A stretch of DNA of 64,000 bases from an uncultured Pelagibacteraceae bacterium (GCA_902571005.1 CACGAG010000004.1:178-64177); one strand, 5' to 3'. Positions 1,674 to 42,211 are shown, counted from the first letter of the stretch. A program made the numbers and translations. Notes: generated by a model not told the origin, from the letters alone.

Positions 1674-2766
1674 ATTTAACATACCTCATATTACTGGTAA
1701 CGAACAAAAATATCTCAAGAATGTATTAAATAGAAAGACGTTTTCTGGAGAAGGATATTACTCAAGAAAGTGTCAAGACTACTTAGAAAATATTTATAAA
1801 AATTCTAAATGTTTATTAACTAATAGTTGTACTGATGCATTAGAGTTTTGTTCTATACTTTTAGACTTAAAAAAAGGCGATGAGGTGATATTGCCAGCAT
1901 TTACGTTCGTTTCGACTGCTAACCCAATAATACTCAGAGGAGCCAAGCCTGTATTTGCTGATGTAGATTACCATAGTATGAACTTATCAATTGATGATGT
2001 AAAAAAGAAAATAACCAAAAAAACAAAGGCAATATTTACTGTAAACTATGGTGGTTCTTCTTGTAATCTCTTTGAATTAAGTAATTTATGCAAAGCAAAA
2101 AAAATATATTTAGTAGAAGACTCAGCTCAAGGAATAGGAGCAAAGTATAAAAATAAATATCTAGGTACATACGGGGACCTCGCAACAATAAGCTTTCATG
2201 AGACTAAGAATATACATTGTGGAGAAGGGGGATGTCTTATAATAAATCAGTCAAAATTTATAAAAAGGGCAAACTTAATCCATGAAAAAGGGACTAACAG
2301 AAAAGATTTTAAAGATGGAATGGTGAATAAGTATGGATGGAGGGATGTTGGTTCATCATATGTTGTAAGTGAGTTACAGTCGGCATTCTTGTATGCACAA
2401 CTTTTTGATATTAGAAAAGTTACTAATTACAGAAAAGATTTATGGAATGAATATAACCAAAACATTAATAACAATTTATTTGACAAACAAGATATAAAAA
2501 AAAATGATACTAATGGTCATTTATATTTTCTACTATGCAAAGGGGATAGGAAGAAATTTATAAATTATATGTCAAAGCACAATGTTCAAGTTTCTGCACA
2601 CTATGAGTCACTTAATAAAAGTAAATTTTTTTCTTCCATTTACAAATATAAGAAATGTGAAAATTCTGAAATTGCAGAAAATAAACTTGTAAGATTACCA
2701 ATATGGTTTGGTATGACAGAAAAGCAAATAACACATATTGTAAATCTTATCAATAACTATGGTTAG
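1663..2766 (+). CDS. rffA: dTDP-4-amino-4,6-dideoxygalactose transaminase (DegT family, RffA/WecE type)
   Basis: TNSCTDALE, FTFVSTAN, EDSAQG, SFHETKNI, EKGTNR and WRDVGSSY match the RffA/WecE subfamily. Confidence 0.85.
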   Translation: MKIKFNIPHITGNEQKYLKNVLNRKTFSGEGYYSRKCQDYLENIYKNSKCLLTNSCTDALEFCSILLDLKKGDEVILPAFTFVSTANPIILRGAKPVFADVDYHSMNLSIDDVKKKITKKTKAIFTVNYGGSSCNLFELSNLCKAKKIYLVEDSAQGIGAKYKNKYLGTYGDLATISFHETKNIHCGEGGCLIINQSKFIKRANLIHEKGTNRKDFKDGMVNKYGWRDVGSSYVVSELQSAFLYAQLFDIRKVTNYRKDLWNEYNQNINNNLFDKQDIKKNDTNGHLYFLLCKGDRKKFINYMSKHNVQVSAHYESLNKSKFFSSIYKYKKCENSEIAENKLVRLPIWFGMTEKQITHIVNLINNYG

Positions 2767-3247
2767 TAACTGGCAAATAAAAAAAAATTTTTATATAAAA
2801 TCATTAATAATTTTTTTTACATTAATAAGTTTTTTCTTTTTAGAAAATTCAAATTTTTATAATGCTAAAAATGCTAAAGACCAAACTACTAATTTAATTA
2901 AAGCAATTTCGACGCATGATAATAATATTTCAAATTTTTTTTACAGAGGTGAGTTGGTAGGAGATTATCGTCGCTTTATAAAAACTATAAATAATAATAG
3001 TTATAATAAAATATATATTAGAGAAAAGCTAAACGAACATGGCTTATGTGAAATAAATAAATGTAAGTTTAATATTTATTTTAAAAATGATGAAAAAATA
3101 GAAAATGAATTATCAAAAGAAATAATATTTCTTTCTTCCTCTGAAAATTTCATTGTAGATCAATCAGTTCGTGCGTTTTGGTTAGTGATGATTTTTGTAA
3201 AAGATCATTGGAATGTATCCGTTTTGATGGAGGAAACTAGTGAATAA
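2759..3247 (+). CDS. Hypothetical protein with an N-terminal hydrophobic anchor
   Basis: 162-aa ORF overlapping both neighbours; single hydrophobic segment LIIFFTLISFFFL; no recognised motif. Confidence 0.55.
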   Translation: MVSNWQIKKNFYIKSLIIFFTLISFFFLENSNFYNAKNAKDQTTNLIKAISTHDNNISNFFYRGELVGDYRRFIKTINNNSYNKIYIREKLNEHGLCEINKCKFNIYFKNDEKIENELSKEIIFLSSSENFIVDQSVRAFWLVMIFVKDHWNVSVLMEETSE

Positions 3248-4736
3248 TATATTAAAACAGAATTATAAGATTTTTTTGTTTTATATTTTTTTTATATTTT
3301 CGTTGTATACAGTCGGGTCAGTTTATTTTGAATATCTATATAATCTTTCTGGTTTAGAATTTTATCAGGAGAGATTTAGATTTATCTTATCGGTTGCGTG
3401 TAACAATACAAACGACTATCCAGGTGGTGCAATTGTAAAGAAATTTTTCAATCTAGAAATTGAAACAATTAGTTGTGATGAAATTAATTGGGACCTTCAT
3501 ACAATTTCCAATATAACTGCATTTGAATTATCTCACTTAGGATTAATATATTCTATTGGTTATATTTTTAAACTATCAGGATCTAACGATTGGTCATTGC
3601 TATATATACTTAGTGGAATTCTGTTTGTTATGTATGGTTTATCAGTTTTTCTGATTTTTAAGAGATTTTTAAGAGGAAATATATTTCCATTAATTTTTAC
3701 TGTTTGTGTCATTTTATTTTCATCTTTTATAGATCAATCAATAGATTTCAGAGATAGCATGAAAACTGGCTTTATAACGACTAGCTTACTCCTTTGCATA
3801 TATATAAATGATAGTTTTTCTACCTCATCGAAAAGAATCTATGTATACATCGCTTTATTAGGACTTATTATAAGCATTGGAGCAAATTTTAGAATAGATG
3901 TTATTTTAACCGTTGCTGTTTTCATATTTATTTTGTTAATTCAATTTTTTTATAAAATAAGACTTAGCAAACTGTTAATTTCGTTACTAATATTTTTTAT
4001 TAGCTTCATGCCACTATCTTACCCATTACTTAAACAAGATAGTTCAAATTCATGGCACATATTTACACTAGGGATGTCTGATGATCAAAATCACAGACTT
4101 GATCTCCAACAAAGACAAATAATACCTTTTCATACAGATTATTCTGTTATCGTCTTAAATCAATTTTATGATATGAGTAAAAATGAAGCACTTCATCTTG
4201 AAAGGCATGAAAGATTAAAAGACTATTTTGAAAACAAGGGCTATCTATCAGGACAAAGGTTTGATAGAAACTACATATATCACCCGTTATGGCACATAGA
4301 TACTGCAAATTATACACAACTATCGAAAGAGGTATTTACAAAAATATCTTTTCAAAATTTACCTTTTATTCTTAAAAGATATAAAAATGCGGTATTTAAT
4401 AATATTGAAAGATCTTACTCGCCGAAGATTAATAAAATTTTTAGATCAAGTGAAATGTTAACTAATACACTCTTATCTATACAAAAAACAATATTATCTT
4501 ATAGTAAAATATTATTTTTAGTTTTTATATTTGGTTTCTTTTGTGCTTTTTTAAATTTTAGAGAATTATACCCACTTTATTTTTCTTTTTTCTATTTTTC
4601 ATTCTTTCAATCGTTCTTATATCAAGAACGTCATATATACTATTTAGAACCTATCGGGCTTTTGCTGATATTACTTTCTTTTGTAAATATATATCGATTT
4701 TTGACAATTAAAATAATGGCGAAACCTACATGCTAA
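3240..4736 (+). CDS. Polytopic membrane protein, possible GT-C fold glycosyltransferase
   Basis: GTG start after GGAGG; about 10 or more hydrophobic segments, two large hydrophilic loops, charged loop motifs (RDSMK, NFRID, QERH). GT-C call is an inference from architecture. Confidence 0.45.
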   Translation: MNNILKQNYKIFLFYIFFIFSLYTVGSVYFEYLYNLSGLEFYQERFRFILSVACNNTNDYPGGAIVKKFFNLEIETISCDEINWDLHTISNITAFELSHLGLIYSIGYIFKLSGSNDWSLLYILSGILFVMYGLSVFLIFKRFLRGNIFPLIFTVCVILFSSFIDQSIDFRDSMKTGFITTSLLLCIYINDSFSTSSKRIYVYIALLGLIISIGANFRIDVILTVAVFIFILLIQFFYKIRLSKLLISLLIFFISFMPLSYPLLKQDSSNSWHIFTLGMSDDQNHRLDLQQRQIIPFHTDYSVIVLNQFYDMSKNEALHLERHERLKDYFENKGYLSGQRFDRNYIYHPLWHIDTANYTQLSKEVFTKISFQNLPFILKRYKNAVFNNIERSYSPKINKIFRSSEMLTNTLLSIQKTILSYSKILFLVFIFGFFCAFLNFRELYPLYFSFFYFSFFQSFLYQERHIYYLEPIGLLLILLSFVNIYRFLTIKIMAKPTC

Positions 4737-5182
4737 TCAAATTTTTTGTTTTTTTACAAATTTTCTTCTTTTTTTTGAATAATTCTCATGCGATGTGTAA
4801 TTTAGTTGAAAAAAATACATATATTGAAGACAGAATAATATCAGTATTTGATAATCAAATATGTGAATCCTGTATTGATAATTATGCTTACTACTATGTT
4901 ATTAATATTGAAAACGAATTACCCCTTAATTCTATCAATATTATAGAACTTACATATGATTATACAAATATTGGCAATAACTTATTGTCTACAATAGAGA
5001 TTCCAAAAATATCAGATTTAAAAACAATTTTCATACCCGTATGGCCAATACTTGGCTTTAGAGAGATATTAATTCCAGAAAGATTGATAGAGGAGTCAAA
5101 AATTTATATGGCCTCAATTAATAACTTTCACGATTTTCCAGCCCTATATTTTGAGAATGAAGACATTTCTTGTATCAAATGA
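4730..5182 (+). CDS. Hypothetical exported protein
   Basis: 150-aa ORF with signal-peptide-like N-terminus (…NNSHA/MC) and several Cys; overlaps the upstream stop. Confidence 0.5.
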   Translation: MLIKFFVFLQIFFFFLNNSHAMCNLVEKNTYIEDRIISVFDNQICESCIDNYAYYYVINIENELPLNSINIIELTYDYTNIGNNLLSTIEIPKISDLKTIFIPVWPILGFREILIPERLIEESKIYMASINNFHDFPALYFENEDISCIK

Positions 5183-5302: not shown

Positions 5303-6019
5303 ATGAATAAAAATATCATGAAACCAAAAGTAATCGCATTAATTCCAGCTAGAGGAGGAAGCAAAAGCATCCCCAAAAAAAATTTATCAAAACTACATGG
5401 TAAGCCACTTCTATATTGGTCTATTGAAATAGCACTAGAAACAAAATTAATAGATGATGTTTACGTTTCAACTGATGATAAAGAAATAAAAAAAATTGCT
5501 AAGAAATTCGGAGCAAAAATTCATGATAGACGTAAAAGCTTATCGAATGACAAGTCATTAGTTGTTGATTTAATAAAAGATTTTTCTAAAAATTACTTAA
5601 CTAATAAGTCTGATATTATCATATTGTTAGAGCCAACTTCACCATTTCGAACTAAAAAAGTTGTTAGAAATTGTATAATAAAGATGATTAAAAATAATCT
5701 TGATTCTATAGCAACATTTGAGGATGCTCATATAAATCCAAACCGAACATGGAAAATAAAAAATAATTTTCCAAAACCTTATATAAGAAAATCAATACCA
5801 TGGTTGCCAAGGCAAAAATTAGAAAAAGCGTATCAACTTAATGGAGTTGTTTATGGAATGCGGGGTTTAAAAATTCGTAAAAATCAAGTTGGACTTTTAT
5901 TTGGAAAAAAAAATTCATTGATTATTCCTAGAATAGGTGTTAACGATATCGACAATATAAATGATCTAAATTTTGCAAATGCCTTCACCAAAACAACAAA
6001 GTCAAAGCCGATTAGTTGA
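5303..6019 (+). CDS. neuA: CMP-nonulosonate synthetase (NeuA/LegF family cytidylyltransferase) 1
   Basis: ALIPARGGSKSIPKKN, GKPLL, VSTDD, LLEPTSPFR, YQLNG, DID motifs. Confidence 0.92.
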   Translation: MNKNIMKPKVIALIPARGGSKSIPKKNLSKLHGKPLLYWSIEIALETKLIDDVYVSTDDKEIKKIAKKFGAKIHDRRKSLSNDKSLVVDLIKDFSKNYLTNKSDIIILLEPTSPFRTKKVVRNCIIKMIKNNLDSIATFEDAHINPNRTWKIKNNFPKPYIRKSIPWLPRQKLEKAYQLNGVVYGMRGLKIRKNQVGLLFGKKNSLIIPRIGVNDIDNINDLNFANAFTKTTKSKPIS

Positions 6020-6800
6020 TTTATTTGATTTACGCGAGCGAAATATTTTAATTATTGGTGGTGCAGGTTACCTAGGATTTCAGATTAGTTTAGCGCTGGC
6101 TGAGTGTGGAGCTAGAGTATTTATATGTAGTAGAGATTTTAAAAAATGCCAAGATGCTACTAAGGTCCTAAATAAACTTTATCCCAATAAACATTTGCCT
6201 TTTAAAGTAAACATCGCGTCAACAAAATCTATTGACTCACTTTTTAAAAAAATTTCCAAAATTACAAATAGCAAAATTCATTCTTTAGTCAATTGTGGAT
6301 GGAGTGGAAAAAAGAATACTTTTGAGACGATAAATGAGCAGGATTGGGATCAAGATATAGAAATCAGCATAACAGGCGTATTTAAAACAGTTAAGAGTTT
6401 TGTACCGATGTTGGAGAATACGAAGGGAAATATTCTTAATGTCTCTTCCATGTATGGATTAGTTGCTCCTGATTATAGACTTTACGACTCATCTGACTTA
6501 GCAAATCCACCAAGCTATGGCGCGGCAAAAGCTGGAGTGATTCAATTAACTAAGTATTTAGCAAGTTTCCTAGCTCCAAAAGAAATAAGAGTGAATTGTA
6601 TTAGTCCTGGTCCATTTCCTTTTGTCTCTACTCAAAAAAGCAATTCAAAATTCATTAATAAATTATCAAAAAAAACGATGTTAAATAGAATAGGGTATCC
6701 ACATGAAATAAAAGGCATTTGTGCAGTTCTGTGCTCAGATGCTGGCAGTTACATCACCGGACAAAATTTTTCCATAGATGGAGGATGGACTTCTTGGTAA
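5979..6800 (+). CDS. SDR-family oxidoreductase
   Basis: GGAGYLG, NVSSMYG, YGAAKAG (YxxxK), RVNCISPG, ITGQNFSIDGG. ATG at 5979 preferred over TTG at 5973. Confidence 0.88.
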   Translation: MPSPKQQSQSRLVDLFDLRERNILIIGGAGYLGFQISLALAECGARVFICSRDFKKCQDATKVLNKLYPNKHLPFKVNIASTKSIDSLFKKISKITNSKIHSLVNCGWSGKKNTFETINEQDWDQDIEISITGVFKTVKSFVPMLENTKGNILNVSSMYGLVAPDYRLYDSSDLANPPSYGAAKAGVIQLTKYLASFLAPKEIRVNCISPGPFPFVSTQKSNSKFINKLSKKTMLNRIGYPHEIKGICAVLCSDAGSYITGQNFSIDGGWTSW

Positions 6801-7705
6801 TAAAAGCTGGAATAATTGGCTTTTCAGAGTCTAATGGCCACCCATATTCCTTTTCGTCAATAATAAATGGTTTTAGTGAAGAATATTATTTAAAATCAGA
6901 ATGGAATGTAATTTTAGATTATTTAAAAAAACAGCCGGAATCTAATTTTGGTTTTAAAAATGTAAAAGTTACTCATGCCTTTACTCAAGACTTTAAAATA
7001 ACACAAAGTATATGTAATTGTTCCTTCATAGAAAATGCATGCAAATCAATTGATGAATTATTTGATGCAGTTGATGCTATAATAATAGCCAGAGATGATT
7101 GGCAATCACACCTTGAACTAGCAAGGGATTTCCTTAAGAGAGGAATACCTGTTTTTATCGACAAACCACTTAGCCTATCTTTTGAAGAAATGAAGTTTTT
7201 TGAGAAATATATATATAATGCGAAACTTATGTCATGTTCAGGTTTTAGATTTTGTGAAGAGCTTGATAATATTAGAAATGATAAAAGTAAGATTGATGAT
7301 ATATTCTTTATTACAGGTAATATTTTAAATGATTTAGAAAAATATGGTATTCATTTAATAGACGCTTTATCCGGAATTAGTAATGAATTTCACAGTTTTT
7401 ACTCTGTTGAGAGAACATTAACTAAGCATGATCAATATCATATAAAATATAAAAATGGGAAAGAATTTATGCTGAATTGTTTAGGTGATGTAAAAAAAAT
7501 ATTCAATCTTAAATTAATTGGTAATAAAAATATTATTGATTTAAACCTAAATAATAACTTTTCTGCTTTTAGAAGAACATTGAAAAATTTTTTCTATATG
7601 ATTGAACATAATGTCTCACCAATAGACTACAGTGAAACATATAATATTATGAATCTCTTAAATTATGCATCTAAATTAGAGAAAGGGGAAAGAAAAAAGT
7701 TTTAA
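6785..7705 (+). CDS. Gfo/Idh/MocA-family NAD-dependent oxidoreductase
   Basis: AGIIG, GHPYSFS, VFIDKPL, KYGIH motifs. Start is probably ATG 6785 or TTG 6794 (GGAGG at 6780-6784), not 6719. Confidence 0.8.
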   Translation: MDFLVIKAGIIGFSESNGHPYSFSSIINGFSEEYYLKSEWNVILDYLKKQPESNFGFKNVKVTHAFTQDFKITQSICNCSFIENACKSIDELFDAVDAIIIARDDWQSHLELARDFLKRGIPVFIDKPLSLSFEEMKFFEKYIYNAKLMSCSGFRFCEELDNIRNDKSKIDDIFFITGNILNDLEKYGIHLIDALSGISNEFHSFYSVERTLTKHDQYHIKYKNGKEFMLNCLGDVKKIFNLKLIGNKNIIDLNLNNNFSAFRRTLKNFFYMIEHNVSPIDYSETYNIMNLLNYASKLEKGERKKF

Positions 7706-7709
7706 TATT

Positions 7710-8495
7710 ATGAATAAAAATAAATCTCTAAAAAATAAAGTTGCAATTATTACAGGATCTTCTGGATTATTAGGCCAACAATTTTGTAAAATCCTTTTAA
7801 AAAATGGAGTAATCGTAATTGGTATTGATAAAGTAATAAAAAATAAAATTAATCATGAAAATATATTCTATAAAAAAATCGATATAACAAATGAATTAGT
7901 TGTAAAAAAATTTGTATCAAGTGTTGTAAAAAAATTTGGTCATATTGACATTCTTGTAAATAATGCAGCAAGCAAATCATCAAAAACTAAAGAATTTTTT
8001 AGAGATTATGAGAGTTATAATTATTCGACTTGGAAAGAAATTATGTCTGTAAATTTAGATGCAGTTTTTTTGCTAACTAAATATGTTGGAAAAGATATGG
8101 TGAGAAAGAAGATAAATGGAAAAATCATACAAATTGCCTCAATATATGGTTTGATAGGACCTGATCAAAAATTATATGAGAATGGAAAATACAAAGGTAT
8201 AAAAATGAGTTCTCCTGCGGTATACAGTGCTTCAAAAGCAGCAGTGATTGGGTTAACTAAATATCTCGCTACCTATTGGGGAAGTAAAGGTATAAGAGTC
8301 AACGCAATTACCCCGGGTGGTATTGATGGAGGGCAAAATAGTACTTTTAGAAAAAAATATTCTAAACGCGTTCCTCTTGGAAGAATGGCAGATAAAAACG
8401 AGATTGAAGGGGCGCTATTGTATCTTGTGTCTGATGACTCAAGTTATGTTACAGGGCAGAATATTATTATCGATGGTGGATTTTCGTCATGGTAA
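7710..8495 (+). CDS. SDR-family oxidoreductase, PtmA-like
   Basis: ITGSSGLLG, LVNNAA, IASIYG, YSASKAA, RVNAITPGG, VTGQNIIIDGG. Confidence 0.88.
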   Translation: MNKNKSLKNKVAIITGSSGLLGQQFCKILLKNGVIVIGIDKVIKNKINHENIFYKKIDITNELVVKKFVSSVVKKFGHIDILVNNAASKSSKTKEFFRDYESYNYSTWKEIMSVNLDAVFLLTKYVGKDMVRKKINGKIIQIASIYGLIGPDQKLYENGKYKGIKMSSPAVYSASKAAVIGLTKYLATYWGSKGIRVNAITPGGIDGGQNSTFRKKYSKRVPLGRMADKNEIEGALLYLVSDDSSYVTGQNIIIDGGFSSW

Positions 8496-8512: not shown

Positions 8513-9418
8513 TTGATTGTGATTAAAATTGTGAGAATTGGTATTCTTGGAGATGGAGTTTGGGCTCAAAATTTATTGCTTCAGATAGTTGAAGACGACT
8601 CGATTCAAATAGCTTTTCTATCAGCAAGATATAATAGACCTGATCAAAAACTCATATCTTTGGGTAAAAAAAATAAGATAAATATTATTAATATTAAAAA
8701 TATTAACTCATCTGACTCTATCAAAATTTTAAAAAGCTTGAAATGTGATTTATTAGTTTCAATGTCCTATAATCAGATTATTGAGCCTAAAGTTTTAAAA
8801 ATCTTTCAAAAAGGTGCAATCAATTGTCATGCCGGAAAACTACCTTTTTATAGAGGTAGGAGTATTTTAAATTGGGTATTAATTAATGATGAAAAAGAGT
8901 TTGGAATAACAGTTCATCAAATTGATAAAACAATTGATACAGGACCAATAATTCTTCAAAAAACTTTCTCAATTGATGATAATGACGATTATAAATCAAT
9001 TTTAGAAAAATCATATTCTGAGGCCCCAAAAATTTTATTTGAAGCAATTAAGTTGATACAAAGTGATTTGTGTGAGATTAAAAATCAGAAAGAAATTCAT
9101 AAAATTGGATCCTATTATTCAAAAAGAAAAGTAGGTGATGAAACTATAGATTGGGAAAAATCATCAAGACAAATATTTAATTTTATAAGAGCTTTAGTTT
9201 ATCCTGGACCATATGCTCAATCTCAAATTAAAAAAAAAATTATAAAATTTATTAAATCAAAACAAGTTAAATTAGATTTAAATAATAAAGAATATATTAG
9301 TGGAGAAGTCATTGAAGGAAATGATGAATACTTTATTATTAGGACTTATGATAATGGAATTAAGATTACAGATTGGGAACCAAGAATCAAAATTAAAAAG
9401 GGGGATAGGTTTACTTGA
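8513..9418 (+). CDS. Sugar N-formyltransferase (FMT fold) 1
   Basis: AINCHAGKLPFYRG and VHQIDKTIDTG formyltransferase motifs plus a C-terminal FMT domain (IDW, IRAL..PGP.A); lies inside the glycan cluster. Confidence 0.85.
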   Translation: MIVIKIVRIGILGDGVWAQNLLLQIVEDDSIQIAFLSARYNRPDQKLISLGKKNKINIINIKNINSSDSIKILKSLKCDLLVSMSYNQIIEPKVLKIFQKGAINCHAGKLPFYRGRSILNWVLINDEKEFGITVHQIDKTIDTGPIILQKTFSIDDNDDYKSILEKSYSEAPKILFEAIKLIQSDLCEIKNQKEIHKIGSYYSKRKVGDETIDWEKSSRQIFNFIRALVYPGPYAQSQIKKKIIKFIKSKQVKLDLNNKEYISGEVIEGNDEYFIIRTYDNGIKITDWEPRIKIKKGDRFT

Positions 9419-10413
9419 AAATAAATATTATTGCTGAAGCTGGAGTTAACCATAATGGTAGAGTTGATAATGCTATAAAATTAGTTGATAAAGCAGCAAT
9501 CGCTGGAGCAGACATTGTTAAATTTCAAACATTTAAAGCAGATATGCTTACTACAGATAAAGCACCAAAAGCCAATTATCAAATCAGAAACACAGGTAAT
9601 AATAATTCTCAGAGTGAAATGCTTAAGTCATTAGAAATGAGTGATGAAATGCATGAAGCTATTATAGAAAGATGTAAATCAAAAAAGATTGAGTTTTTAT
9701 CAACTGCTTTTGATCCTCAAAGTCTTAATTATTTATTAGAGTTGGGTATTAAGAGAATAAAGATCCCTTCAGGAGAAATTACAAATTTTTTTTTACTGGA
9801 AGAAGCTGCAAAAGCAAATCTTAACGTCATTCTCTCAACAGGTATGGCTCATATGAATGAAATTGAAGCAGCATTAAATATTTTATATAAATATGGAGCA
9901 AATAGAGAAAATATAACTATATTACAGTGTGTAACTGACTATCCCGCTAAAGCAATTGATTATAATTTAAAAACAATGAAAACATTTAAAGAATGTTTTG
10001 GGACAGATTATGGAATATCTGATCATACCTTAGGTATTAATGTTTCTTTAGCTTCGGCTGCTCTTGAAGCATCAATAATTGAGAAGCATTTTACGCTCAA
10101 TAAAAAAATGAATGGACCGGATCATTCTGCCAGTTTAGACCCAGATGAATTGAAATTAATGTGCTCTTCAATACGTGAGATTTCAAATTCCCTAGGTGAT
10201 GGGGTAAAAAGACCTACTAATGATGAAATAAATAATATTATAGCTGTAAGAAAATCGCTTGTAGCTTCACGGGAAATTTTACAAGGAGAAGTATTTAGTA
10301 AAGACAATGTTACCGCAAAAAGACCAGGTGATGGACTATCACCAATGAAATGGAATGAATTAGAAGGTAAAAAATCATCTAAAAGATATAAAAAAGATCA
10401 AAAGATAAATTAA
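9415..10413 (+). CDS. neuB: Nonulosonate synthase, LegI/NeuB type
   Basis: TTG start; IIAEAGVNHNG, VKFQTF, KIPSGE, ILSTGM, QCVTDYP, GISDH, IEKHFT, GPDHSAS and a C-terminal SAF domain. Confidence 0.95.
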   Translation: MKINIIAEAGVNHNGRVDNAIKLVDKAAIAGADIVKFQTFKADMLTTDKAPKANYQIRNTGNNNSQSEMLKSLEMSDEMHEAIIERCKSKKIEFLSTAFDPQSLNYLLELGIKRIKIPSGEITNFFLLEEAAKANLNVILSTGMAHMNEIEAALNILYKYGANRENITILQCVTDYPAKAIDYNLKTMKTFKECFGTDYGISDHTLGINVSLASAALEASIIEKHFTLNKKMNGPDHSASLDPDELKLMCSSIREISNSLGDGVKRPTNDEINNIIAVRKSLVASREILQGEVFSKDNVTAKRPGDGLSPMKWNELEGKKSSKRYKKDQKIN

Positions 10414-10415
10414 TC

Positions 10416-11570
10416 ATGAAAAAGGTATGTGTTGTAACAGGAACAAGAGCAGAATTTGGTTTAATGCGATATCTTATAGAGGAAATAAAGTTATCAAAAG
10501 TATTAAAATTACAGTTGGTTGCTACTGGAACTCATTTATCCAAAAAATATGGTGAAACTTATAAAGAAATATTAGCCTCTGGATTTAAGATTGCCTCCAA
10601 TGTAGATTCATTGCTTGATGATAACTCTCCTCGAGGGATTGCGAAATCTGTAGGCTTAGGTACTAAAAAATTTGCAGATGTTTTTCATAAATTAAAACCT
10701 GATGTAGTGATTGTTTTAGGTGATAGATTTGAAATATTGAGTGCAGTGGTGTCTGCAATGTTTCAAGGTATTCCAATTGCTCATATTCATGGTGGTGAGT
10801 CAACAGAGGGATTAATAGATGATCAAATTAGGAACTCAATTACAAAGATGTCCCATCTTCATTTTGTTGCCGCAAAAGAATATTATCAAAAAGTAAATCA
10901 AATGGGTGAGCAGAAAAAAAATATTTTCAATTTTGGAGGTTTAGGCGTTGATGTCATCAAAAGAACAAAGATTTTAACCAAGTCAGAGTTTTCATATAAT
11001 TTTAAATATAATTTTGGTAAAAAAAATTATCTTATAACTTTTCACCCTGTTACTCTAGAAAAGGGAACTGCTAAAAAGCAAGCTCAAGAGCTTGTTAAAT
11101 CATTAAATGAACAGTTAGAAGCTAATATTTTAATTACCTGCCCAAATGCTGATGCAGAAGGAAATCAAATTTATAAGATTTTTAAAAATTTTGCATATAA
11201 GAATAAAAAAGTTTTCTTATATAAATCTCTTGGTTACGTTGGGTATATAAGCGCTCTCAGACACTTTGATTGTATAATAGGAAATTCTTCTAGTGGTCTA
11301 TTAGAAGCACCAACCTTTAAGAAACCTACAATTAATATTGGAAGCAGACAAGATGGAAGACTCAAAGCCAAAAGCGTAATTGATTGTAAGCCTGATTATA
11401 TTTCAATTAACAAATCTATAGAGTATATTAATTCTAAAAAATTTAAAAAAAATCTTTCCAAAGTTAAAAATCCATACGGCAATGGAGGCGCAAGTAAGAA
11501 AATTGTAAAAATTTTAGAGAAAATAGATTTGTCAAATTTAAATAAAAAAAAGTTTTATGTTAAAGAATAA
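10416..11570 (+). CDS. neuC: Hydrolysing NDP-sugar 2-epimerase, LegG/NeuC type
   Basis: VVTGTRAEFG, TGTHLS, LGDRFE, HIHGGE, FHPVT, IGNSSSG, RQDGR, NPYGNG. Confidence 0.95.
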   Translation: MKKVCVVTGTRAEFGLMRYLIEEIKLSKVLKLQLVATGTHLSKKYGETYKEILASGFKIASNVDSLLDDNSPRGIAKSVGLGTKKFADVFHKLKPDVVIVLGDRFEILSAVVSAMFQGIPIAHIHGGESTEGLIDDQIRNSITKMSHLHFVAAKEYYQKVNQMGEQKKNIFNFGGLGVDVIKRTKILTKSEFSYNFKYNFGKKNYLITFHPVTLEKGTAKKQAQELVKSLNEQLEANILITCPNADAEGNQIYKIFKNFAYKNKKVFLYKSLGYVGYISALRHFDCIIGNSSSGLLEAPTFKKPTINIGSRQDGRLKAKSVIDCKPDYISINKSIEYINSKKFKKNLSKVKNPYGNGGASKKIVKILEKIDLSNLNKKKFYVKE

Positions 11571-12468
11571 ACCAAAGATAATAGTAGTTGGTTCTGTAAT
11601 GTTTTCAGAATTCATAATTAAAAATTTTTTGTCTAAGAAGATTGAAATTGTTGGAATAATTGGTAGACGATCGAACAAACTTAACTCTGATCATGTCGAT
11701 TTAAGAATGATATCGAATGAAATGCACATACCATTTCATAGTACAAATGATATAAACTCATCAAAAACAATCAATTGGGCCAAAAAATTAAAACCAGATT
11801 GGATATTATGTGTTGGATGGTCTCAATTATTTAAGGAAAGTATTTTAAAAATACCCAAATATAAAGTAATTGGATATCACCCAGCTTTACTTCCAGCAAA
11901 TAGAGGGAGACATCCTTTAATTTGGGCTCTGTTTCTTGGATTGGATTTTACTGGCTCATCTTTTTTTGTAATGAATGAGAAAGCTGACTCGGGTAAGGTC
12001 ATTTTACAAAAAAAAATAAGAATTAATAAGAATGATAACGCACTAATTCTATACAATAAGATGATTAAGACGGCCCTAAGTCAGGTAAACGGATTAATTA
12101 AAATATTTTTATCAGAAGGAAGAAACTTAACATACGTTAATAAAAACAATAAAATTGTAAAAACTAATTACTGGCGAAAAAGAGATATCCAAGATGGTAT
12201 AATTGATTGGAGAATGTCAAGCATACAAATTGTTAGATTAATTAATGCTCTATATAAACCTTATGTTGGTGCCCAATTTAAATACAAAGGTAAAGATATT
12301 AAAGTCTGGAAAGCAAAAGTAATAAGAATAAATCAACAAAATATTGAGCCAGGAAAAATTATTAGTTATAAAAATTTAAAAAATATAGTAAAAAGTGGGG
12401 ATATGGCTGTACAACTCACAATAATAGAACCAGCAATAAAATTAAAAATCGGATCATATTTAAAATGA
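11557..12468 (+). CDS. Sugar N-formyltransferase (FMT fold) 2
   Basis: IGYHPALLPANRGRHPLIW, ADSG and a C-terminal FMT domain (IDW, INAL.KPY.GA). Confidence 0.82.
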   Translation: MLKNKPKIIVVGSVMFSEFIIKNFLSKKIEIVGIIGRRSNKLNSDHVDLRMISNEMHIPFHSTNDINSSKTINWAKKLKPDWILCVGWSQLFKESILKIPKYKVIGYHPALLPANRGRHPLIWALFLGLDFTGSSFFVMNEKADSGKVILQKKIRINKNDNALILYNKMIKTALSQVNGLIKIFLSEGRNLTYVNKNNKIVKTNYWRKRDIQDGIIDWRMSSIQIVRLINALYKPYVGAQFKYKGKDIKVWKAKVIRINQQNIEPGKIISYKNLKNIVKSGDMAVQLTIIEPAIKLKIGSYLK

Positions 12469-13133
12469 AATCACTTGTAATAGCACCACATGCTGATGAT
12501 GAGTTACTAGGTTGCGCTGGAACTATCCTAAGAAATACCAAACTAGGAAATGAAGTGGGAATTCATTTTGTTACCTCACTTACAAAAAAAGGTGGATGGA
12601 CAACTCAACAAATCAAGAAAAGAGAAAAAGAAATCAAACTCGTAATTAAAGATTTAGGAGTAGAAGATAAGAATATATTTAAAAGCAATTTTGAAGCAAC
12701 CGCGATAGATGAATTAAAATTAAATAAAATGATTATAAATTTTTCAAGTATTATCAAAAAATTTAAACCTGAAAATTTATTTTTACCCTTTTACGGAGAT
12801 ATTCATTCAGAGCATCGTAAAGTATTCGATGCTGCAATGAGTAGTTCAAAGTGGTTTAGGCAACCTTCAATTAAAAATATTTTAATGTATGAAACGGTTT
12901 CAGAAACTGAATTTAATCCTAAGCAATCAGAAACTTTTTCACCAAATTATTTTGTTGATATATCTGAATTTATTGATCAAAAAATTAGACTTATAAATAT
13001 ATATCAATCTGAAATTAAAAATTTTCCATTCCCTAGGAGTAACGAAAATATAATAGCTCTAAGTAAGTTTAGAGGAGCTCAGTCAGGCTTTAACGCTGCA
13101 GAGTCCTTTATGATCGTCAAGAGTAGGGTTTAG
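12465..13133 (+). CDS. PIG-L/LmbE-family de-N-acylase
   Basis: IAPHADDELLG (PHxDD metal motif), DIHSEH, YETVSET, Y.SE...FP.PRS. Confidence 0.88.
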   Translation: MKSLVIAPHADDELLGCAGTILRNTKLGNEVGIHFVTSLTKKGGWTTQQIKKREKEIKLVIKDLGVEDKNIFKSNFEATAIDELKLNKMIINFSSIIKKFKPENLFLPFYGDIHSEHRKVFDAAMSSSKWFRQPSIKNILMYETVSETEFNPKQSETFSPNYFVDISEFIDQKIRLINIYQSEIKNFPFPRSNENIIALSKFRGAQSGFNAAESFMIVKSRV

Positions 13134-13138
13134 AACTC

Positions 13139-14188
13139 GTGACAATATCAATTGAAAAAATTCTATGTACCTCATCTAACTCTGATATCAACAGTGTTTT
13201 GAATGATCTGGAAAATTGTGAAATAAAAACAATAGGAGTATTAAATCAAAATTTGGTATTTATAGGCACAATCACAGACGGTGATATCAGAAGAGCATTA
13301 CTGAAGAAGGATAAAAAACTTCTAACTGCCGAAGATATATGTAACAAAAATTTTTTTTATGTAAAAAATGACAATCAATCAAGTGAAGCAAAAAAAATTA
13401 TACGTGACAATAATATTGATTGTATACCTATTATCAAAGAGGAATTAATTAATGATAATTTCTATATAAAAGCATTTGTAAGAAGAAATTTTAATGAGCT
13501 AAAATCCCTAGAGAAAAAATTTGTAGGGTATATTTTTGCTGGAGGTAGAGGTAGTAGGATGGGTGATCTTACTAAAGAAATTCCAAAACCATTACTTAAA
13601 ATAAATAATAAACCTTTGATAGATCATGTGATTGAAGAATTTATACATTATGAAATTAGAGAAATATATGTATCTACTGGTTACTTGAGTGAGAAGATTG
13701 AGAATTATCTAATGCATTACAATAATCAAGAAGTTAGATTTCATATTTTAAAAGAAAATAATCCATTAGGCACAGCTGGTTCACTATCTCAAACAAGTAA
13801 TTTAAATAAAATTTTGATTTGCAGAAATGCAGACGTAATATCACCTATAAATATAAGAAATATGATGATAAGCCATCTTAAAAATAAGTCAGACTTTACA
13901 ATTGGTTCATTGGTTCATAACTATGATATTCCCTTTGGAGTAATTGAGCACAAAGGTAGTAATTTTGAAAAAATCATAGAAAAACCAACTAATTTTTGGC
14001 ATATCTGTGCTGGTATAAATGTAATAAGTTCAGATATGTGCGCTTACATAAAACCAGGCGAATACATTGATATGCCTACTTTTATAAATAGGCTTTCAAG
14101 AAATAAAAAAAGAGTTAATTTATTCCCAATTTATGAAAATTGGAGAGATATTGGTACACAAGAAGCATTAAATTATATGAACCAATAA
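13139..14188 (+). CDS. CBS-domain nucleotidyltransferase, PtmE/LgaF type
   Basis: GTG start; N-terminal CBS pair (GTITDGDIRRALL), then AGGRGSRM, PKPLL, PLGTAGSL, WRDIG. Confidence 0.88.
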   Translation: MTISIEKILCTSSNSDINSVLNDLENCEIKTIGVLNQNLVFIGTITDGDIRRALLKKDKKLLTAEDICNKNFFYVKNDNQSSEAKKIIRDNNIDCIPIIKEELINDNFYIKAFVRRNFNELKSLEKKFVGYIFAGGRGSRMGDLTKEIPKPLLKINNKPLIDHVIEEFIHYEIREIYVSTGYLSEKIENYLMHYNNQEVRFHILKENNPLGTAGSLSQTSNLNKILICRNADVISPINIRNMMISHLKNKSDFTIGSLVHNYDIPFGVIEHKGSNFEKIIEKPTNFWHICAGINVISSDMCAYIKPGEYIDMPTFINRLSRNKKRVNLFPIYENWRDIGTQEALNYMNQ

Positions 14189-16779: not shown

Positions 16780-17808
16780 ATGAAGTTTGAAAAGTTTACT
16801 TTTTTCCCAGACATTGACCTTTACTTTGATAGAGATATGTATGATGCTAAATTACTTATTGATAATATTATTAATCACGATTTAGAATATTTAAAATTTG
16901 CATTATGCATTAATAATCCCATTAACAGAGATCAAACCGCTGTTGAAAAATGGATTGACAACAAAGATAATGCCAAACAACAAGATTTATACGATATCTT
17001 TGAAGAAAGGAGATTAAGTAGTGACCAAGCCTATGAATTCTTAGAATATGCAAAATCCACAGGATTGAAACTTATTGCATCAGTTTATGATGAAAAAGCT
17101 GTTGAGATTTGTTCAAATTACGTTGAAGCATTAAAAATATCATCATCTAATATCACGAATTTTTTTTTAATAGATAAAGTAATTCAAACTGGAAAATCCA
17201 TTATTATTGATACTGGTAAATCTGATGTACTTGAAATTGAGGATACAATTAATTTTATTAATTCTTATGGTAAGACAAATCATATTCTTTTACAACACAG
17301 TCCAAATAGACCTCCAGCTTTATCAATAGATTGGGCACTTTCTGGATTAGCTTTGTTGAAGAAAAAGTTCAATTTACCCATTGGTCTTAGTGAGCATAGT
17401 AATGAATTTACTCAAACAGTGTGTGCTATTTCTTCGGGAGTAATTAATATAGAAAAAGGAATTATGTTAGATAAAATCCATCAACGGGGTGTCTCCGATT
17501 CAGCTCATGCTTTACCAATTTCAAGATTGAAAGAATATTTAGATATTATTAATGAAACAAGAGAGGCTTTTTTAAAAGAATGGCACGATTTGAAAGATGC
17601 TGACTTTGAAATGAGAAAATATTCAAGATCAGGATTATATGCTGCAAAAGATTTATCAAAAGGTGAAACTTATAGTATTGAAAATATCAATGTATTGGCG
17701 CCTGAAATAGGGATAAGTGGTGCAGAGTACTACAATGTAATTGGAAAAAAAGTTACTAGAGATATAAAAAAAGGTGAGCCGTTAAGAAATGAAAATATTG
17801 GGGATTAG
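16780..17808 (+). CDS. Divergent NeuB-family synthase with SAF domain
   Basis: KISSSNI, IIDTG, GLSEH, IEKG and SAF domain (RSGLYAAKDL.KGE, LAPEIGI) align with the NeuB layout, but several canonical residues are replaced. Confidence 0.8.
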   Translation: MKFEKFTFFPDIDLYFDRDMYDAKLLIDNIINHDLEYLKFALCINNPINRDQTAVEKWIDNKDNAKQQDLYDIFEERRLSSDQAYEFLEYAKSTGLKLIASVYDEKAVEICSNYVEALKISSSNITNFFLIDKVIQTGKSIIIDTGKSDVLEIEDTINFINSYGKTNHILLQHSPNRPPALSIDWALSGLALLKKKFNLPIGLSEHSNEFTQTVCAISSGVINIEKGIMLDKIHQRGVSDSAHALPISRLKEYLDIINETREAFLKEWHDLKDADFEMRKYSRSGLYAAKDLSKGETYSIENINVLAPEIGISGAEYYNVIGKKVTRDIKKGEPLRNENIGD

Positions 17809-18655
17809 TGATAGTCGAAGTCCAGGTGAGTTACTTATAAATACAAATTCTAGAGCTCTTTGCAGAAAATTTGAATTAAATTGGGATTCTGATAAGCGAT
17901 ATTTTGGTTATGAAGACCAATACTTATTCTATGAAGATGAAGATGCCTTCACAAAAATTTACGATATAAGATATAAAGATATAGTAACTAAATCTCATGA
18001 AGTTCATGCACATATTTCAAGTTTTGGTCTTGCACCCAAAATACATGAGATTCAAATTAATGATAAGTGCATCACTGTTAAACTTGAAAAAATTAATTAT
18101 AATAATGATAGTTTTAATACAGAAAAATTGCTGAACAAAGTAATTGAACTACAAGAGATGCTTGAGTCTTTTTTTAAAACAAATATTAAATTAAAAACTG
18201 ATCTTGATGATAATACAAAATTTCTTTTTAAATTAATTGAAGAAAACTTAATTATATACCATAAAAAATTGAATATACCCGAAACATTAATAAGAGAAAT
18301 TAAATCTACAGGAAATATTCTCTTACAGAGCAATGGGATTAATCATGGAGATCTCCATTTTGGAAATATTTTAATCTCCGGTGATAATTTTTTTTTTACT
18401 GATTTTGAGTCTGTTTTTCATTTAGGAGTGAATAATATTATTGATTTTATTAATCTCTCAAGATTTATAGATAAAACGTCTGTATATAATTTTATAAGAA
18501 AACAAGATTTTAAAAAGAGTATACAAGTAGATTTTAAGATATATTTTAATTGGTTAGTCATAAAAAATTTATCTGTTTTAGATCATTTAAAGCAAGAAAA
18601 AAATATGGACATAAGTAATGAATTTAAAAAATTTAGAGAAATGCTTATCTATTAA
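17789..18655 (+). CDS. APH/choline-kinase-fold phosphotransferase
   Basis: Brenner motif NHGDLHFGNIL followed by FTDFE; GLAPKI upstream. Confidence 0.75.
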   Translation: MKILGISDSRSPGELLINTNSRALCRKFELNWDSDKRYFGYEDQYLFYEDEDAFTKIYDIRYKDIVTKSHEVHAHISSFGLAPKIHEIQINDKCITVKLEKINYNNDSFNTEKLLNKVIELQEMLESFFKTNIKLKTDLDDNTKFLFKLIEENLIIYHKKLNIPETLIREIKSTGNILLQSNGINHGDLHFGNILISGDNFFFTDFESVFHLGVNNIIDFINLSRFIDKTSVYNFIRKQDFKKSIQVDFKIYFNWLVIKNLSVLDHLKQEKNMDISNEFKKFREMLIY

Positions 18656-19511
18656 TCAAAATATCATCATCTTTCGTGACTATGGTTCAATTAATTGTGC
18701 AGAAGTTTTATTTAAAAAGATTAAAAATAAGAAAAAAAATATTCTCTTTACTCATAATATCTTAAGATTAAACGAAAAAAAAATAATAGAAAAAAAATTA
18801 AGTGGTTATATTATTAGAAATAATTTTTTGTTTTTTTATTATTTATTATTTAAGAAAAAAAACATTATAATTTTACAATCCTCAAATGTTATTAAATACG
18901 AAAAGTTCATAAAGTTTTTTTTTCAAAATTATTTTGTAATCCAAGATTACATTGGTGATTTTAAGTATGGTTCAAAACCTATTTATTTAACTTCATTTAC
19001 TTATGATGAGAAACAGACAATTCAAAAAACTATAACATTACCTTATATGCGTCCTCAGGTAATTGACAAAAAAAAATATATTTTAGATGAAAAGAGCTTA
19101 TTAATTTTGGGAGCGAGGAATTTAATCACAAAAAAAAATAATACTTTTTTGTCTAAGCTTTACAGTATGAATAAGTATATAAAGATTTTTTATAAACCTC
19201 ATCCTTCAGAATTAATTGATATTGATAAGAATAATTATCTTAAAAGATTAGATTTTGAACTTTTTGAATTTGAGAATGTTAATAAGATTCCAAAATATAT
19301 TATTTCTCCCTTTTCATCTCTTGGTTTTGATTTACCTGAACAAACAAATTTAGATAGTAATTCATTTATTATCTATCATGGTTTTGGAAACAGTTATGAC
19401 AAAAAACATTTTGATGACCCTAATTGGCAATTGCATGTTTCAAATAAGTCTGTAAATTACTTTAAAAACGATTTTAATTTATTTTTACAAGAGATAAAAA
19501 ATAATGTGTAA
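18618..19511 (+). CDS. Hypothetical protein, candidate nonulosonate transferase
   Basis: 297 aa; FYKPHPSE and ISPFSSLG resemble sialyltransferase HP and SS motifs; directly precedes a NeuA homologue. Confidence 0.5.
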   Translation: MNLKNLEKCLSINQNIIIFRDYGSINCAEVLFKKIKNKKKNILFTHNILRLNEKKIIEKKLSGYIIRNNFLFFYYLLFKKKNIIILQSSNVIKYEKFIKFFFQNYFVIQDYIGDFKYGSKPIYLTSFTYDEKQTIQKTITLPYMRPQVIDKKKYILDEKSLLILGARNLITKKNNTFLSKLYSMNKYIKIFYKPHPSELIDIDKNNYLKRLDFELFEFENVNKIPKYIISPFSSLGFDLPEQTNLDSNSFIIYHGFGNSYDKKHFDDPNWQLHVSNKSVNYFKNDFNLFLQEIKNNV

Positions 19512-20169
19512 TGTGATAGCATTCATTCCAGCTAGAAGAAATAGTAAAGGAATAAAGTATAAAAACAGGCAGTTAGTTGATAAAAAAACTATTGTTGAGC
19601 ATGCATTAGATTTTTCGAAATCATTACCATTTGACGAAATTGTTCTTAGTACCGACGATGAGTACTTTATAGACGATAAGAAATTTAAAGATTTTATTAA
19701 CCTCAGAGAGCCAGATTTAAGTGGAGATGATATAATTTTGACAGATGTTTTACTTGATTTGATTAGTAAAAATCAAAATTTCAAAAATAGCTTTATTATT
19801 TTATTAGAGCCAACTTGTCTATTTCGTAAAAAAGATGATTTAAATTTTTTTTTTAATGAAAATTTTTTTAAATCTAAATATAAATCTTTTGCTTCTTTTA
19901 AACGTGAAAAAATCGATTACTCAAAGGGTTGGACTTGTATTGAAGATGAAATGAGACCAATTTCAAATCCTTGGAAGAGAAGACAGGAAGCGCTGACTTA
20001 CTATTGTTTAACAGGTCACTATTATGGTTTTTACGCTAATGAGTTAGTGAATATTTATCCTTCATTATTAGCTGATCCATGTAAGATGATTGACATAGAA
20101 AATGAAAGATGTATAGACATAAATTCTGTGTATGATTTAGAGTTAGTAAGAAAAAAATTTAATGAATGA
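19504..20169 (+). CDS. CMP-nonulosonate synthetase (NeuA family) 2
   Basis: AFIPARRNSKGIKYKN, LSTDD, LLEPT, CIDIN. Confidence 0.88.
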   Translation: MCNVIAFIPARRNSKGIKYKNRQLVDKKTIVEHALDFSKSLPFDEIVLSTDDEYFIDDKKFKDFINLREPDLSGDDIILTDVLLDLISKNQNFKNSFIILLEPTCLFRKKDDLNFFFNENFFKSKYKSFASFKREKIDYSKGWTCIEDEMRPISNPWKRRQEALTYYCLTGHYYGFYANELVNIYPSLLADPCKMIDIENERCIDINSVYDLELVRKKFNE

Positions 20170-21424: not shown

Positions 21425-22109
21425 CAAAATAATTGCTTCAAAAGTGTACTCTAAAATCAAAAAAAAAAGACCTAAGATAGTTTTTGATAAAATTATATCT
21501 GATGGAAATAGAAAAACTATTAAAGACTGGCTAGATATCGGTTGTGCAACAGGAGATTTAATACATTTTGCTGCAAAAAAATTTGATAATACTAATTTTA
21601 TAGGAATTGATATTTCTAAAACTAATATTGCCCTTGCTAAGAAGAGTTTTCCAGTCAATCAGTTTCCAAATATTGAATTTAGGCATAGAAGTTTGGAGAA
21701 TTTTAAAACTAAAAAATATTTTGATTGTATCACTGCATGTGCTGTAATTGGATATTACGAAGATTTTAATAAATTTTTTAATCCATTAAAAAAATTATTA
21801 AAAAGTAAAGGCACAATATATATTCATGGCTTATTTAATCCTTACAACTTGTTTGTTAAAACAGAATATAAATACAAAAATAATACATACGGTGGTTTAA
21901 ATCAATTTCCTTTAAAAGATACAATTAAACTTATCGAATCAAAAAATTTTACTGTTTCGAAGTACAAAATAAATATAACAAAAAAAATTTTACCTAATAA
22001 AGAGTTTCCGCACCGAAGTTTTTCCTCTAATCATAAAATCTATCCACTTATGAATGGTTGTTTGAATTTGTTGCCAGATACTTTATTGAAATGTAAAAAT
22101 AATGCGTAA
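21411..22109 (+). CDS. Class I SAM-dependent methyltransferase
   Basis: WLDIGCATG, GIDIS, FDCI motifs. Confidence 0.85.
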   Translation: MNSNNKIIASKVYSKIKKKRPKIVFDKIISDGNRKTIKDWLDIGCATGDLIHFAAKKFDNTNFIGIDISKTNIALAKKSFPVNQFPNIEFRHRSLENFKTKKYFDCITACAVIGYYEDFNKFFNPLKKLLKSKGTIYIHGLFNPYNLFVKTEYKYKNNTYGGLNQFPLKDTIKLIESKNFTVSKYKINITKKILPNKEFPHRSFSSNHKIYPLMNGCLNLLPDTLLKCKNNA

Positions 22110-22800: not shown

Positions 22801-22820
22801 ATCTTTTAAGTATTAATAAT

Positions 22821-39527: not shown

Positions 39528-39609
39528 ATTTATGCAACGAATTTAATATTGACATATATAATGTAAATTGTTTTATTTGCCATTCTAAATAATAAATGGA
39601 GATAAAATT

Positions 39610-39924: not shown

Positions 39925-39941
39925 ATCTTAAATTATTAAAA

Positions 39942-40760: not shown

Positions 40761-40816
40761 ATTGCATCTAAATATTATGTGTTGAATGAGATATTATCCT
40801 TTTGTATCATATAAGT

Positions 40817-42094: not shown

Positions 42095-42136
42095 CAATTA
42101 AAAAATTATATATCCTTGATATATAATAGGATTTTT

Positions 42137-42211
42137 GGGCACGTAGCTCAGTGGTAGAGCATCACGTTGACATCGTGGGGGTTGTTGGTTCGATCCCAAC
42201 CGTGCCCACCA
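42137..42211 (+). tRNA. tRNA-Val(GAC)
   Basis: GGGCACG/CGTGCCC acceptor stem, GCTC/GAGC D stem, TCACG-TTGACAT-CGTGG anticodon arm (GAC at 42169-42171), GTTGG-TTCGATC-CCAAC T arm, encoded CCA. Confidence 0.98.

Follow-up and report, generated by a model that had tools for sequence, protein, structure and literature searches.

The window analysed here, a 64,000-nucleotide (64-kb) stretch of DNA from an uncultured Pelagibacteraceae bacterium (CACGAG010000004.1:178-64177), contains a six-gene block that appears to build a legionaminic acid (Leg)-type nonulosonate with two formyltransferase-like enzymes and no acetyltransferase. The block spans positions 8513-14188 on the plus strand and encodes a two-domain formyltransferase (FT1), the nonulosonate synthase NeuB, the hydrolysing 2-epimerase NeuC, a second formyltransferase-like protein (FT2), a predicted PIG-L-family de-N-acetylase and a PtmE-type nucleotidyltransferase. 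This composition had been read from the DNA in an earlier note on the window, and open reading frame (ORF) calls together with family matches recovered all six genes, tightly packed or overlapping one another. With genes on either side, the block provides a predicted Leg-type pathway that is complete apart from LegH. We propose, with moderate confidence, that the core is of the Leg type (a 5,7-diamino-nonulosonate) and that both of its N-acyl groups would be set by formyl transfer, the product being cytidine monophosphate (CMP)-5,7-di-N-formyl-legionaminic acid or a stereoisomer of it.

In the proposed route, the PtmE-type and the PtmA/PtmF-like enzymes would supply nucleoside diphosphate (NDP)-linked N-acetylglucosamine (GlcNAc), which a 4,6-dehydratase and a LegC-family aminotransferase would convert into an NDP-4-amino-4,6-dideoxy sugar. 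FT1 would formylate the 4-amino group from N10-formyl-tetrahydrofolate, this nitrogen becoming N7 of the product. PIG-L would strip the GlcNAc-derived 2-N-acetyl group and FT2 would re-formylate the amine, the later N5; both steps would most likely use the NDP-sugar as substrate, close to the NeuC step. The route to CMP-5,7-di-N-formyl-legionaminic acid, or its C4 or C8 epimer, would be completed by NeuC, NeuB and the cytidylyltransferase. Gene content and context are the basis on which we infer the substrates, the order of steps, the pairing of enzymes with nitrogens, the stereochemistry and the final product. The stereochemistry (Leg as opposed to its 4-epimer (4eLeg), its 8-epimer (8eLeg), pseudaminic acid (Pse) or neuraminic acid (Neu)) could be altered by two extra short-chain dehydrogenases and a GFO-type oxidoreductase encoded upstream of the block.

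By sequence comparison, FT1 and FT2 fall into two separate, large and uncharacterised families. The earlier note had singled out a difference in their catalytic motifs, NCH versus GYHP, as a sign of distinct acceptors, and the difference is real. FT1 reads INCHAGKLPFYRGR, followed further on by IDTG, and contains the Asn, His and Asp of the triad of sugar N-formyltransferases (N104, H106 and D142), whereas FT2 reads IGYHPALLPANRGR, followed by ADSG, with His and Asp kept and Gly in place of Asn (G106, H108 and D144). A profile-profile alignment of the two (28% identity) sets N104, H106 and D142 opposite G106, H108 and D144. Both patterns hold family-wide: INCHA is present in 119 of 120 FT1 homologues and G[YF]HP in 116 of 120 FT2 homologues, two more of which have GSHP, so that G[YFS]HP accounts for 118 of the 120. 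Each protein has thousands of homologues at about 45-50% identity; both score under every NCBIfam cutoff, and no curated model covers either family. Among solved structures, ArnA, WbkC and Fmt come closest (E about 1e-23 to 1e-24). The ArnA formyltransferase domain, Brucella WbkC and Fmt have the two-domain Formyl_trans_N/C fold, the LPxxRG loop and the catalytic His and Asp in common with both proteins, the Asn being shared by FT1 only, and their acceptors differ from those predicted for FT1 and FT2. Taken together, the NCH-to-GYHP difference is consistent with distinct acceptors for the two enzymes.

The PIG-L protein has intact metal motifs, PHADDE and HSEH (HxDD and HxxH), both of which align with BcZBP (2ixd) and with diacetylchitobiose deacetylase. 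Across nine analogous loci checked, HxDDE is kept in all nine and HxxH in eight, the pattern search having found none in the Pseudoalteromonas citrea locus (L083). Scores against the BshB equivalogs lie far under their cutoffs.

Gene neighbourhoods were compared in 160 loci, 80 seeded with FT1 in species-representative genomes and 80 seeded with FT2 in metagenomes, to which six more were added from exact-protein look-ups; the ORFs were labelled by blastp against proteins of the window and reference proteins. Around FT1, the commonest order is dehydratase, LegC, FT1, NeuB, NeuC, PtmE and cytidylyltransferase. LegC lies directly before FT1 in 30 of 78 FT1-seeded loci and NeuB directly after it in 49 of the 78, and FT1 often overlaps LegC in related loci. 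A PglD-type gene is absent within eight genes in 48 of the 68 FT1-seeded loci that have NeuB nearby. FT1 thus usually holds the LegC-to-NeuB slot that PglD/LegH acetyltransferases use in other loci, as would be expected if, in the words of the earlier note's proposal, a formyltransferase replaces LegH. Because it sits in this slot and often overlaps LegC, we predict that FT1 is the N-formyltransferase for the LegC product and that it acts, in place of LegH, on the 4-amino group (N7).

FT2 is tied to NeuC and PIG-L. NeuC stands directly before FT2 in 67 of the 71 loci with a visible neighbour, PIG-L directly after it in 69 of 72, and the PtmE-type gene comes after PIG-L in most related loci. 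The NeuC proteins adjoining FT2 form a distinct subgroup, their mean identity being 57.6% among themselves and 47.3% against the remaining NeuCs, which average 43.7% with one another; no subgroup split of this kind is seen in NeuB (54.1/54.0/55.2) or LegC (46.2/45.4/47.3). The FT1-slot counts and the neighbour counts of FT2 together indicate a modular architecture, in which the slot after LegC would hold either an acetyltransferase or FT1, and the optional NeuC-FT2-PIG-L cassette would be separate from it. Among the 27 FT2-seeded loci with both NeuB and LegC, 19 have a PglD-type gene, two have FT1 without PglD and six have neither. Since the cassette is tied to NeuC, an enzyme acting at C2, and since known PIG-L enzymes de-N-acetylate GlcNAc derivatives at the 2-nitrogen, we assign FT2 and PIG-L to the GlcNAc-derived 2-nitrogen (N5) and predict that FT2 formylates the amine freed by PIG-L. 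The removal of acetyl by PIG-L followed by a second formylation, as put forward in the earlier note, fits such a NeuC-tied cassette. We tentatively extend this to a general scheme, in which NeuC-FT2-PIG-L would be a portable and widespread N5 acyl-swap cassette and FT1 a drop-in replacement of LegH at N7, the combination of both giving 5,7-di-N-formyl-legionaminic acid.

The slot after LegC shows further variants. The six FT2-seeded loci with neither gene include some in which it is occupied by a B12-binding radical S-adenosylmethionine (SAM) enzyme together with a methyltransferase, or by a carbamoyltransferase. L154 also has a PhyH-type dioxygenase between FT2 and PIG-L. These arrangements (L088 4978-7849; L154 4948-6669 and 10876-11670) point to further candidate N-acyl variants.

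PIG-L occurs without FT2 in four loci (L007 12611-13261, L031 6406-7086, L043 11903-12679 and L071 11915-14104), where a SAM methyltransferase, an ATP-grasp ligase with a HAD hydrolase, or a WbqC-like gene stands beside NeuC. The gene content suggests N5-methyl or N5-aminoacyl nonulosonates. As other amine-modifying genes accompany PIG-L beside NeuC, PIG-L would free the amine for varied re-derivatisation, which again argues for N5 as the nitrogen handled by PIG-L and FT2. The same loci bear on a different product with one formyl group and one free or differently modified amine, for which FT1 would formylate N7, while PIG-L would leave N5 free or remove a transient formyl group set by FT2, comparable to ArnD acting after ArnA. 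The occurrence of PIG-L without FT2 speaks for such a product, as do the CMP-nonulosonates with one formyl group and one free amine of Ca. Kuenenia stuttgartiensis, in whose Leg-type cluster genes for a deacetylase and a formyltransferase separate legC from neuB and whose tailoring takes place at the nucleotide-sugar level (bioRxiv 10.64898/2026.04.20.719630). The likeness to the window is one of gene content; Ca. Kuenenia has one formyltransferase where the window has two, and its product keeps a free amine. Furthermore, PtmE could supply NDP-glucosamine (NDP-GlcN), as in the Campylobacter jejuni pathway, which FT2 would formylate directly, making a deacetylase unneeded. We nevertheless consider a one-formyl product unlikely. 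The position of PIG-L directly after FT2 is better explained by consecutive steps on a single nitrogen than by installation and removal of the same group, the loci with PIG-L only carry other amine-modifying enzymes, and the known members of the PIG-L family are de-N-acetylases of GlcNAc derivatives.

If FT2 formylates the amine freed by PIG-L, as we favour, it would be a natural example of a formyltransferase fold working without the canonical Asn. FT2 might instead transfer another acyl group to this amine or act as a non-catalytic partner. The Gly-for-Asn replacement throughout the family would be compatible with this, as would the absence of an NCBIfam model or solved structure specific to the FT2 family and the presence of a GFHP-type protein (30% identity) in a polysaccharide region of S. 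meliloti pSymB that is not a nonulosonate locus. On the other hand, His108, Asp144 and the LPxxRG loop of FT2 are invariant, and its whole two-domain fold aligns with ArnA and WbkC. The hydrolase domain of 10-formyl-tetrahydrofolate dehydrogenase also lacks this Asn and is active. A further argument comes from Halorubrum sp. PV6 and HRPV-1 VP4, which carry 5-N-formyl-legionaminic acid; in the Halorubrum sp. PV6 cluster the order is legG, a predicted formyltransferase and neuD (PMC6137143). N5 is thus formylated where a formyltransferase gene lies directly after legG (neuC), as FT2 does in the window, a likeness based on gene order. Halorubrum keeps a NeuD/PglD-type acetyltransferase, so that one nitrogen is formylated. 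On this evidence, a function of FT2 other than formyl transfer appears distinctly improbable.

The S. meliloti pSymB protein (L170 13998-14942) has the Asn-less motif VGFHPAALP. Genes for sulfotransferases and a PglF-like dehydratase adjoin its own gene, and a PIG-L gene is found at a distance of 14 kb. On this plasmid and on a Palleronia plasmid, the FT2-like and PIG-L-like genes belong to other polysaccharide regions, not to nonulosonate loci; judged by such homologues, the GFHP class reaches beyond nonulosonate/Leg loci.

The second element of the main finding is the lack of an acetyltransferase, which the earlier note had reported for hexapeptide-repeat and GNAT types in the part of the island it described. 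Pfam searches found neither type in ORFs of at least 80 amino acids at 1-38952 or in ten ORFs of 142-272 amino acids beyond, about ten other ORFs at 39-64 kb being unscanned. ORFs without a family match still gave none at E<=10 in Pfam; these encode membrane or secreted proteins. Three of them (2759-3247, 3240-4736 and 4730-5182) were considered as hidden acetyltransferases and ruled out, as their products are of the membrane or secreted kind and match no family. A tblastn search of all six frames of the whole window with four PglD/LegH-type proteins from related loci returned nothing (best E 0.04), and a hidden Markov model (HMM) built from 57 PglD/LegH-type proteins matched nothing beyond a spurious 14-bit hit at the N-terminus of FT2. 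The LegH/PglD-type N-acetyltransferase characteristic of a Leg locus was therefore detected within the 64-kb window by none of these three approaches (Pfam within the ORFs named, tblastn and custom HMM), in agreement with the earlier note.

The window-type set recurs elsewhere. Dehydratase, LegC, FT1, NeuB, NeuC, FT2, PIG-L and PtmE are contiguous, with no PglD-type gene, in a Campylobacter metagenome-assembled genome (MAG; L013), a betaproteobacterial MAG (L037), a Campylobacterota MAG (L038) and a metagenome contig (L151). Variants are found in a Prochlorococcus single-cell genome (L026), with no LegC labelled next to FT1, and in the cultured strain Pseudoalteromonas citrea DSM 8771 (L083), with a different gene order. 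The formyltransferase motifs are identical in all six, and Pfam found no acetyltransferase in the scanned nearby unlabelled ORFs of L026, L037, L038 and L083. The co-occurrence survey that the earlier note had suggested thus shows that the combination without an acetyltransferase is a minority arrangement, yet one present in at least six distant lineages. As the identical gene set recurs in distant genomes, a chance juxtaposition does not account for it.

Several observations weigh against a di-N-formyl product. Besides the missing catalytic Asn of FT2, the Campylobacter MAG (L013) has a GNAT gene three genes downstream of the operon. FT1-family genes adjoin PglD-type acetyltransferases in about 20 loci, and in two proteins of about 500 amino acids (P0155 and P0221) a PglD-type hexapeptide acetyltransferase is fused to an FT1-type formyltransferase. 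The island also encodes a WbuX/WbuY/WbuZ amidotransferase set and a methyltransferase (20162-23405), enzymes that depend on some sugar carrying an N-acetyl group; the WbuX set may belong to the adjoining second NeuB-like pathway (16780-20169). Finally, the window is 64 kb of a genome and half of a 128-kb contig, and in C. jejuni legH sits outside the leg cluster (SugarBase preprint), so that an acetyltransferase, legH included, could possibly lie elsewhere. Such an enzyme, a LegH/PglD homologue or GlmU, would acetylate one or both nitrogens and give a mixed acetyl/formyl Leg. The loci and fusions just named would support this, as they imply that FT1 and an acetyltransferase can work in one pathway, perhaps on different nitrogens. 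Each fusion would be bifunctional, transferring acetyl and formyl to the two nitrogens of a single sugar; where both genes occur in a locus, each enzyme probably has its own nitrogen, or else one of them acetylates NDP-GlcN. We regard an external acetyltransferase as improbable for the window: most FT1-seeded loci with NeuB nearby are compact and have no acetyltransferase close by, the window-type set recurs without one in several lineages, and a deacetylase would be of little use if the acetyl group were retained.

The association of FT1 with PglD-type enzymes also implies that the N5/N7 assignment could be reversed. With two formyltransferases and no acetyltransferase in the window, either assignment leads to the same predicted product, 5,7-di-N-formyl-Leg or a stereoisomer. 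Of the overall interpretation in the earlier note, the roles of both enzymes are supported by comparative genomics, while the di-N-formyl product and the assignment of nitrogens stay predictions.

One or both formyltransferases might alternatively act on another sugar of the island, such as deoxythymidine diphosphate (dTDP)-linked 4-amino-4-deoxyfucose (Fuc4N), which the earlier note had named as a possible acceptor. RmlB, RmlA and a WecE-type transaminase are encoded at 2-2766, the transaminase (matched by NF008687, dTDP-4-amino-4,6-dideoxygalactose transaminase, with 432 bits, cutoff 375) and RmlB lying at the very start of the window with no acyltransferase beside them. However, both formyltransferase families are embedded among LegC, NeuB, NeuC and PIG-L in the 160 loci, mostly without a WecE-type transaminase gene; FT1 overlaps NeuB, FT2 overlaps NeuC and PIG-L, and rmlA of the window has an in-frame TAA stop. 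In view of the nonulosonate context of both families and the rmlA stop, dTDP-Fuc4N was rejected as the principal acceptor and is a very remote candidate beside the Leg intermediates.

The stop codon in rmlA (glucose-1-phosphate thymidylyltransferase, 807-1673) lies at 1278-1280, where the conserved EKP motif is expected. The gene may be a pseudogene or carry a sequencing error; if the stop is real, the dTDP-sugar branch of RmlB and the WecE-type transaminase may be inactive.

Compared with the C. jejuni CMP-Leg pathway (PtmE/PtmF/PtmA, LegB, LegC, LegH, LegG, LegI and LegF), the window shares the PtmE type, PtmA/PtmF-like enzymes, LegC, NeuC, NeuB and a cytidylyltransferase, and its WbuX and methyltransferase resemble C. 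jejuni PtmG/PtmH. In contrast to C. jejuni, it has FT1 instead of LegH and the NeuC-FT2-PIG-L cassette in addition, and its dehydratase is of the Polysacc_synt_2 (PglF/PseB) type rather than an RmlB-like LegB. PseJ formylates in place of PseH and yields Pse5Ac7Fo (PMC11040635; PDB 6ci2). PseJ parallels FT1, since a formyltransferase acylates the 4-amino sugar instead of an acetyltransferase and gives a 7-N-formyl nonulosonate. Together with the products and gene clusters of Halorubrum sp. PV6 and Ca. Kuenenia, it is a precedent that agrees with the proposed route. PseJ is a single-domain protein of about 190-220 amino acids from the pseudaminic acid pathway, whereas FT1 and FT2 are two-domain proteins of about 300 amino acids in Leg-type loci; the relationship is distant (E 1e-13 to FT1, 5e-6 to FT2). 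N-formyl nonulosonates have been described or noted before, as have the exchange of an acetyltransferase for a formyltransferase in the manner of PseJ and the pairing of a deacetylase with a formyltransferase in Leg loci. A literature search under short sugar names found no report of a di-N-formyl nonulosonate, and we know of none. We found no earlier description of double formylation, of the two uncharacterised families or of the NeuC-FT2-PIG-L cassette and its Asn-less enzyme.

Nonulosonic acids are sugars exposed on the cell surface; the N-acyl groups they carry influence charge and antigenicity as well as the way phages and lectins recognise them. A di-N-formyl surface sugar on very abundant marine bacteria, if confirmed, would probably bear on phage recognition. 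For Leg-type loci in general, the arrangement suggests a rule by which the slot after LegC sets the N7 acyl group and the cassette after NeuC re-tailors N5; such a rule would allow the sugar structures of many uncultured marine and gut bacteria to be predicted from their sequences. The comparison of homologues also delineates two large formyltransferase families, and P. citrea DSM 8771 offers a cultured carrier of the gene set.

Table 1. Predicted pathway genes in the window, in order of position.
Predicted product	Position	Strand	Basis
CMP-nonulosonate synthetase, LegF/PtmB-like cytidylyltransferase	5303-6019	+	PF02348 (CTP_transf_3) 5.7e-27; homologues labelled CMPs in related operons
Short-chain dehydrogenase, PtmA-like	5973-6800	+	adh_short_C2 1.2e-48
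GFO_IDH_MocA oxidoreductase, PtmF-like	6719-7705	+	PF01408 6.5e-10
Second short-chain dehydrogenase	7710-8495	+	adh_short_C2 7.2e-45
FT1, two-domain Fmt/ArnA-type formyltransferase	8513-9418	+	Formyl_trans_N + Formyl_trans_C
NeuB/LegI nonulosonate synthase	9415-10413	+	TIGR03569 446 bits, cutoff 400
NeuC/LegG hydrolysing NDP-HexNAc 2-epimerase	10416-11570	+	TIGR03568 471 bits, cutoff 236; FT2/PIG-L-linked subtype
FT2, two-domain formyltransferase-like protein	11557-12468	+	Formyl_trans_N + Formyl_trans_C
PIG-L/LmbE-family de-N-acetylase (predicted)	12465-13133	+	PF02585 6e-18
PtmE-type sugar-1-phosphate nucleotidyltransferase	13139-14188	+	NTP_transferase 9e-25 + N-terminal CBS domains
LegC-family aminotransferase (4-amino group)	28221-29432	+	TIGR04181 510 bits, cutoff 420
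NDP-HexNAc 4,6-dehydratase, Polysacc_synt_2 type, functional LegB/PglF equivalent	29419-30609	+	PF02719 2e-38

The two earliest enzymes of the pathway, LegC and the dehydratase, are encoded 14 kb downstream of the block and had not been listed in the earlier note. LegC of the window is 47-49% identical to the aminotransferases adjoining FT1 in two related loci (L005 and L006). Orthologues of the dehydratase (49-55% identity) lie directly 5' of LegC-FT1 in L013 and L083, and similar genes take this position in many other loci; TIGR04180, the model of the RmlB-like LegB type, matches only the RmlB fragment in the window. The best equivalog for the cytidylyltransferase is the PseF model TIGR03584, with 135 bits under a cutoff of 206. 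The run of CMP-synthetase, short-chain dehydrogenase, GFO-type and second short-chain dehydrogenase genes is also present in L154, and GFO-type genes come after the PtmE or the CMP-synthetase gene in related operons. Directly before LegC, at 24537-28215, the window encodes an asparagine-synthase-type amidotransferase (TIGR01536, 384 bits) and a heparinase II/III-like protein, a pairing seen in some polysaccharide loci.

The window has about 28-29% G+C. A single long plus-strand polysaccharide island extends from position 1 to about 37,000 and is followed by housekeeping genes. Near 37 kb, at the end of the island (37166-42211 region), the strand switches and G+C increases from about 0.27 to more than 0.30; the only hit of the Rfam and tRNA scans was a tRNA-Val (GAC) at 42137-42211. 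The change in strand and G+C and the tRNA-Val may delimit a hypervariable region. Proteins of the island are rare and fall into clusters with just one or two members; the sequence of the housekeeping GAPDH has exact matches on at least 1000 contigs, Tara samples among them. With the alphaproteobacterial TrcR regulator encoded in the window and the low G+C, this recurrence and rarity fit a hypervariable surface-glycan island of a SAR11-type bacterium.

Another, divergent nonulosonate-like module occupies 16780-23405. It comprises a NeuB-like synthase (PseI 153 and NeuB 149 bits, far under the cutoffs), an APH/Bud32-like kinase-fold protein, a 297-amino-acid protein without an assigned family and a weak cytidylyltransferase, and it continues at 20162-23405 with WbuX (302 bits, cutoff 203), a methyltransferase, WbuZ and HisH/WbuY. 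This module may make a different ulosonic acid, acetimidoylated and possibly N-methylated. Further along the island, a SET-domain protein (35518-36018; PF00856, 1.6e-23) is encoded between Wzy_C-type and Wzz-like proteins, an unusual place for a lysine-methyltransferase fold. The housekeeping flank encodes a 5-formyl-tetrahydrofolate cyclo-ligase (59343-59918) and an N-formylglutamate amidohydrolase-family protein (42532-43230), which probably serve ordinary one-carbon metabolism.

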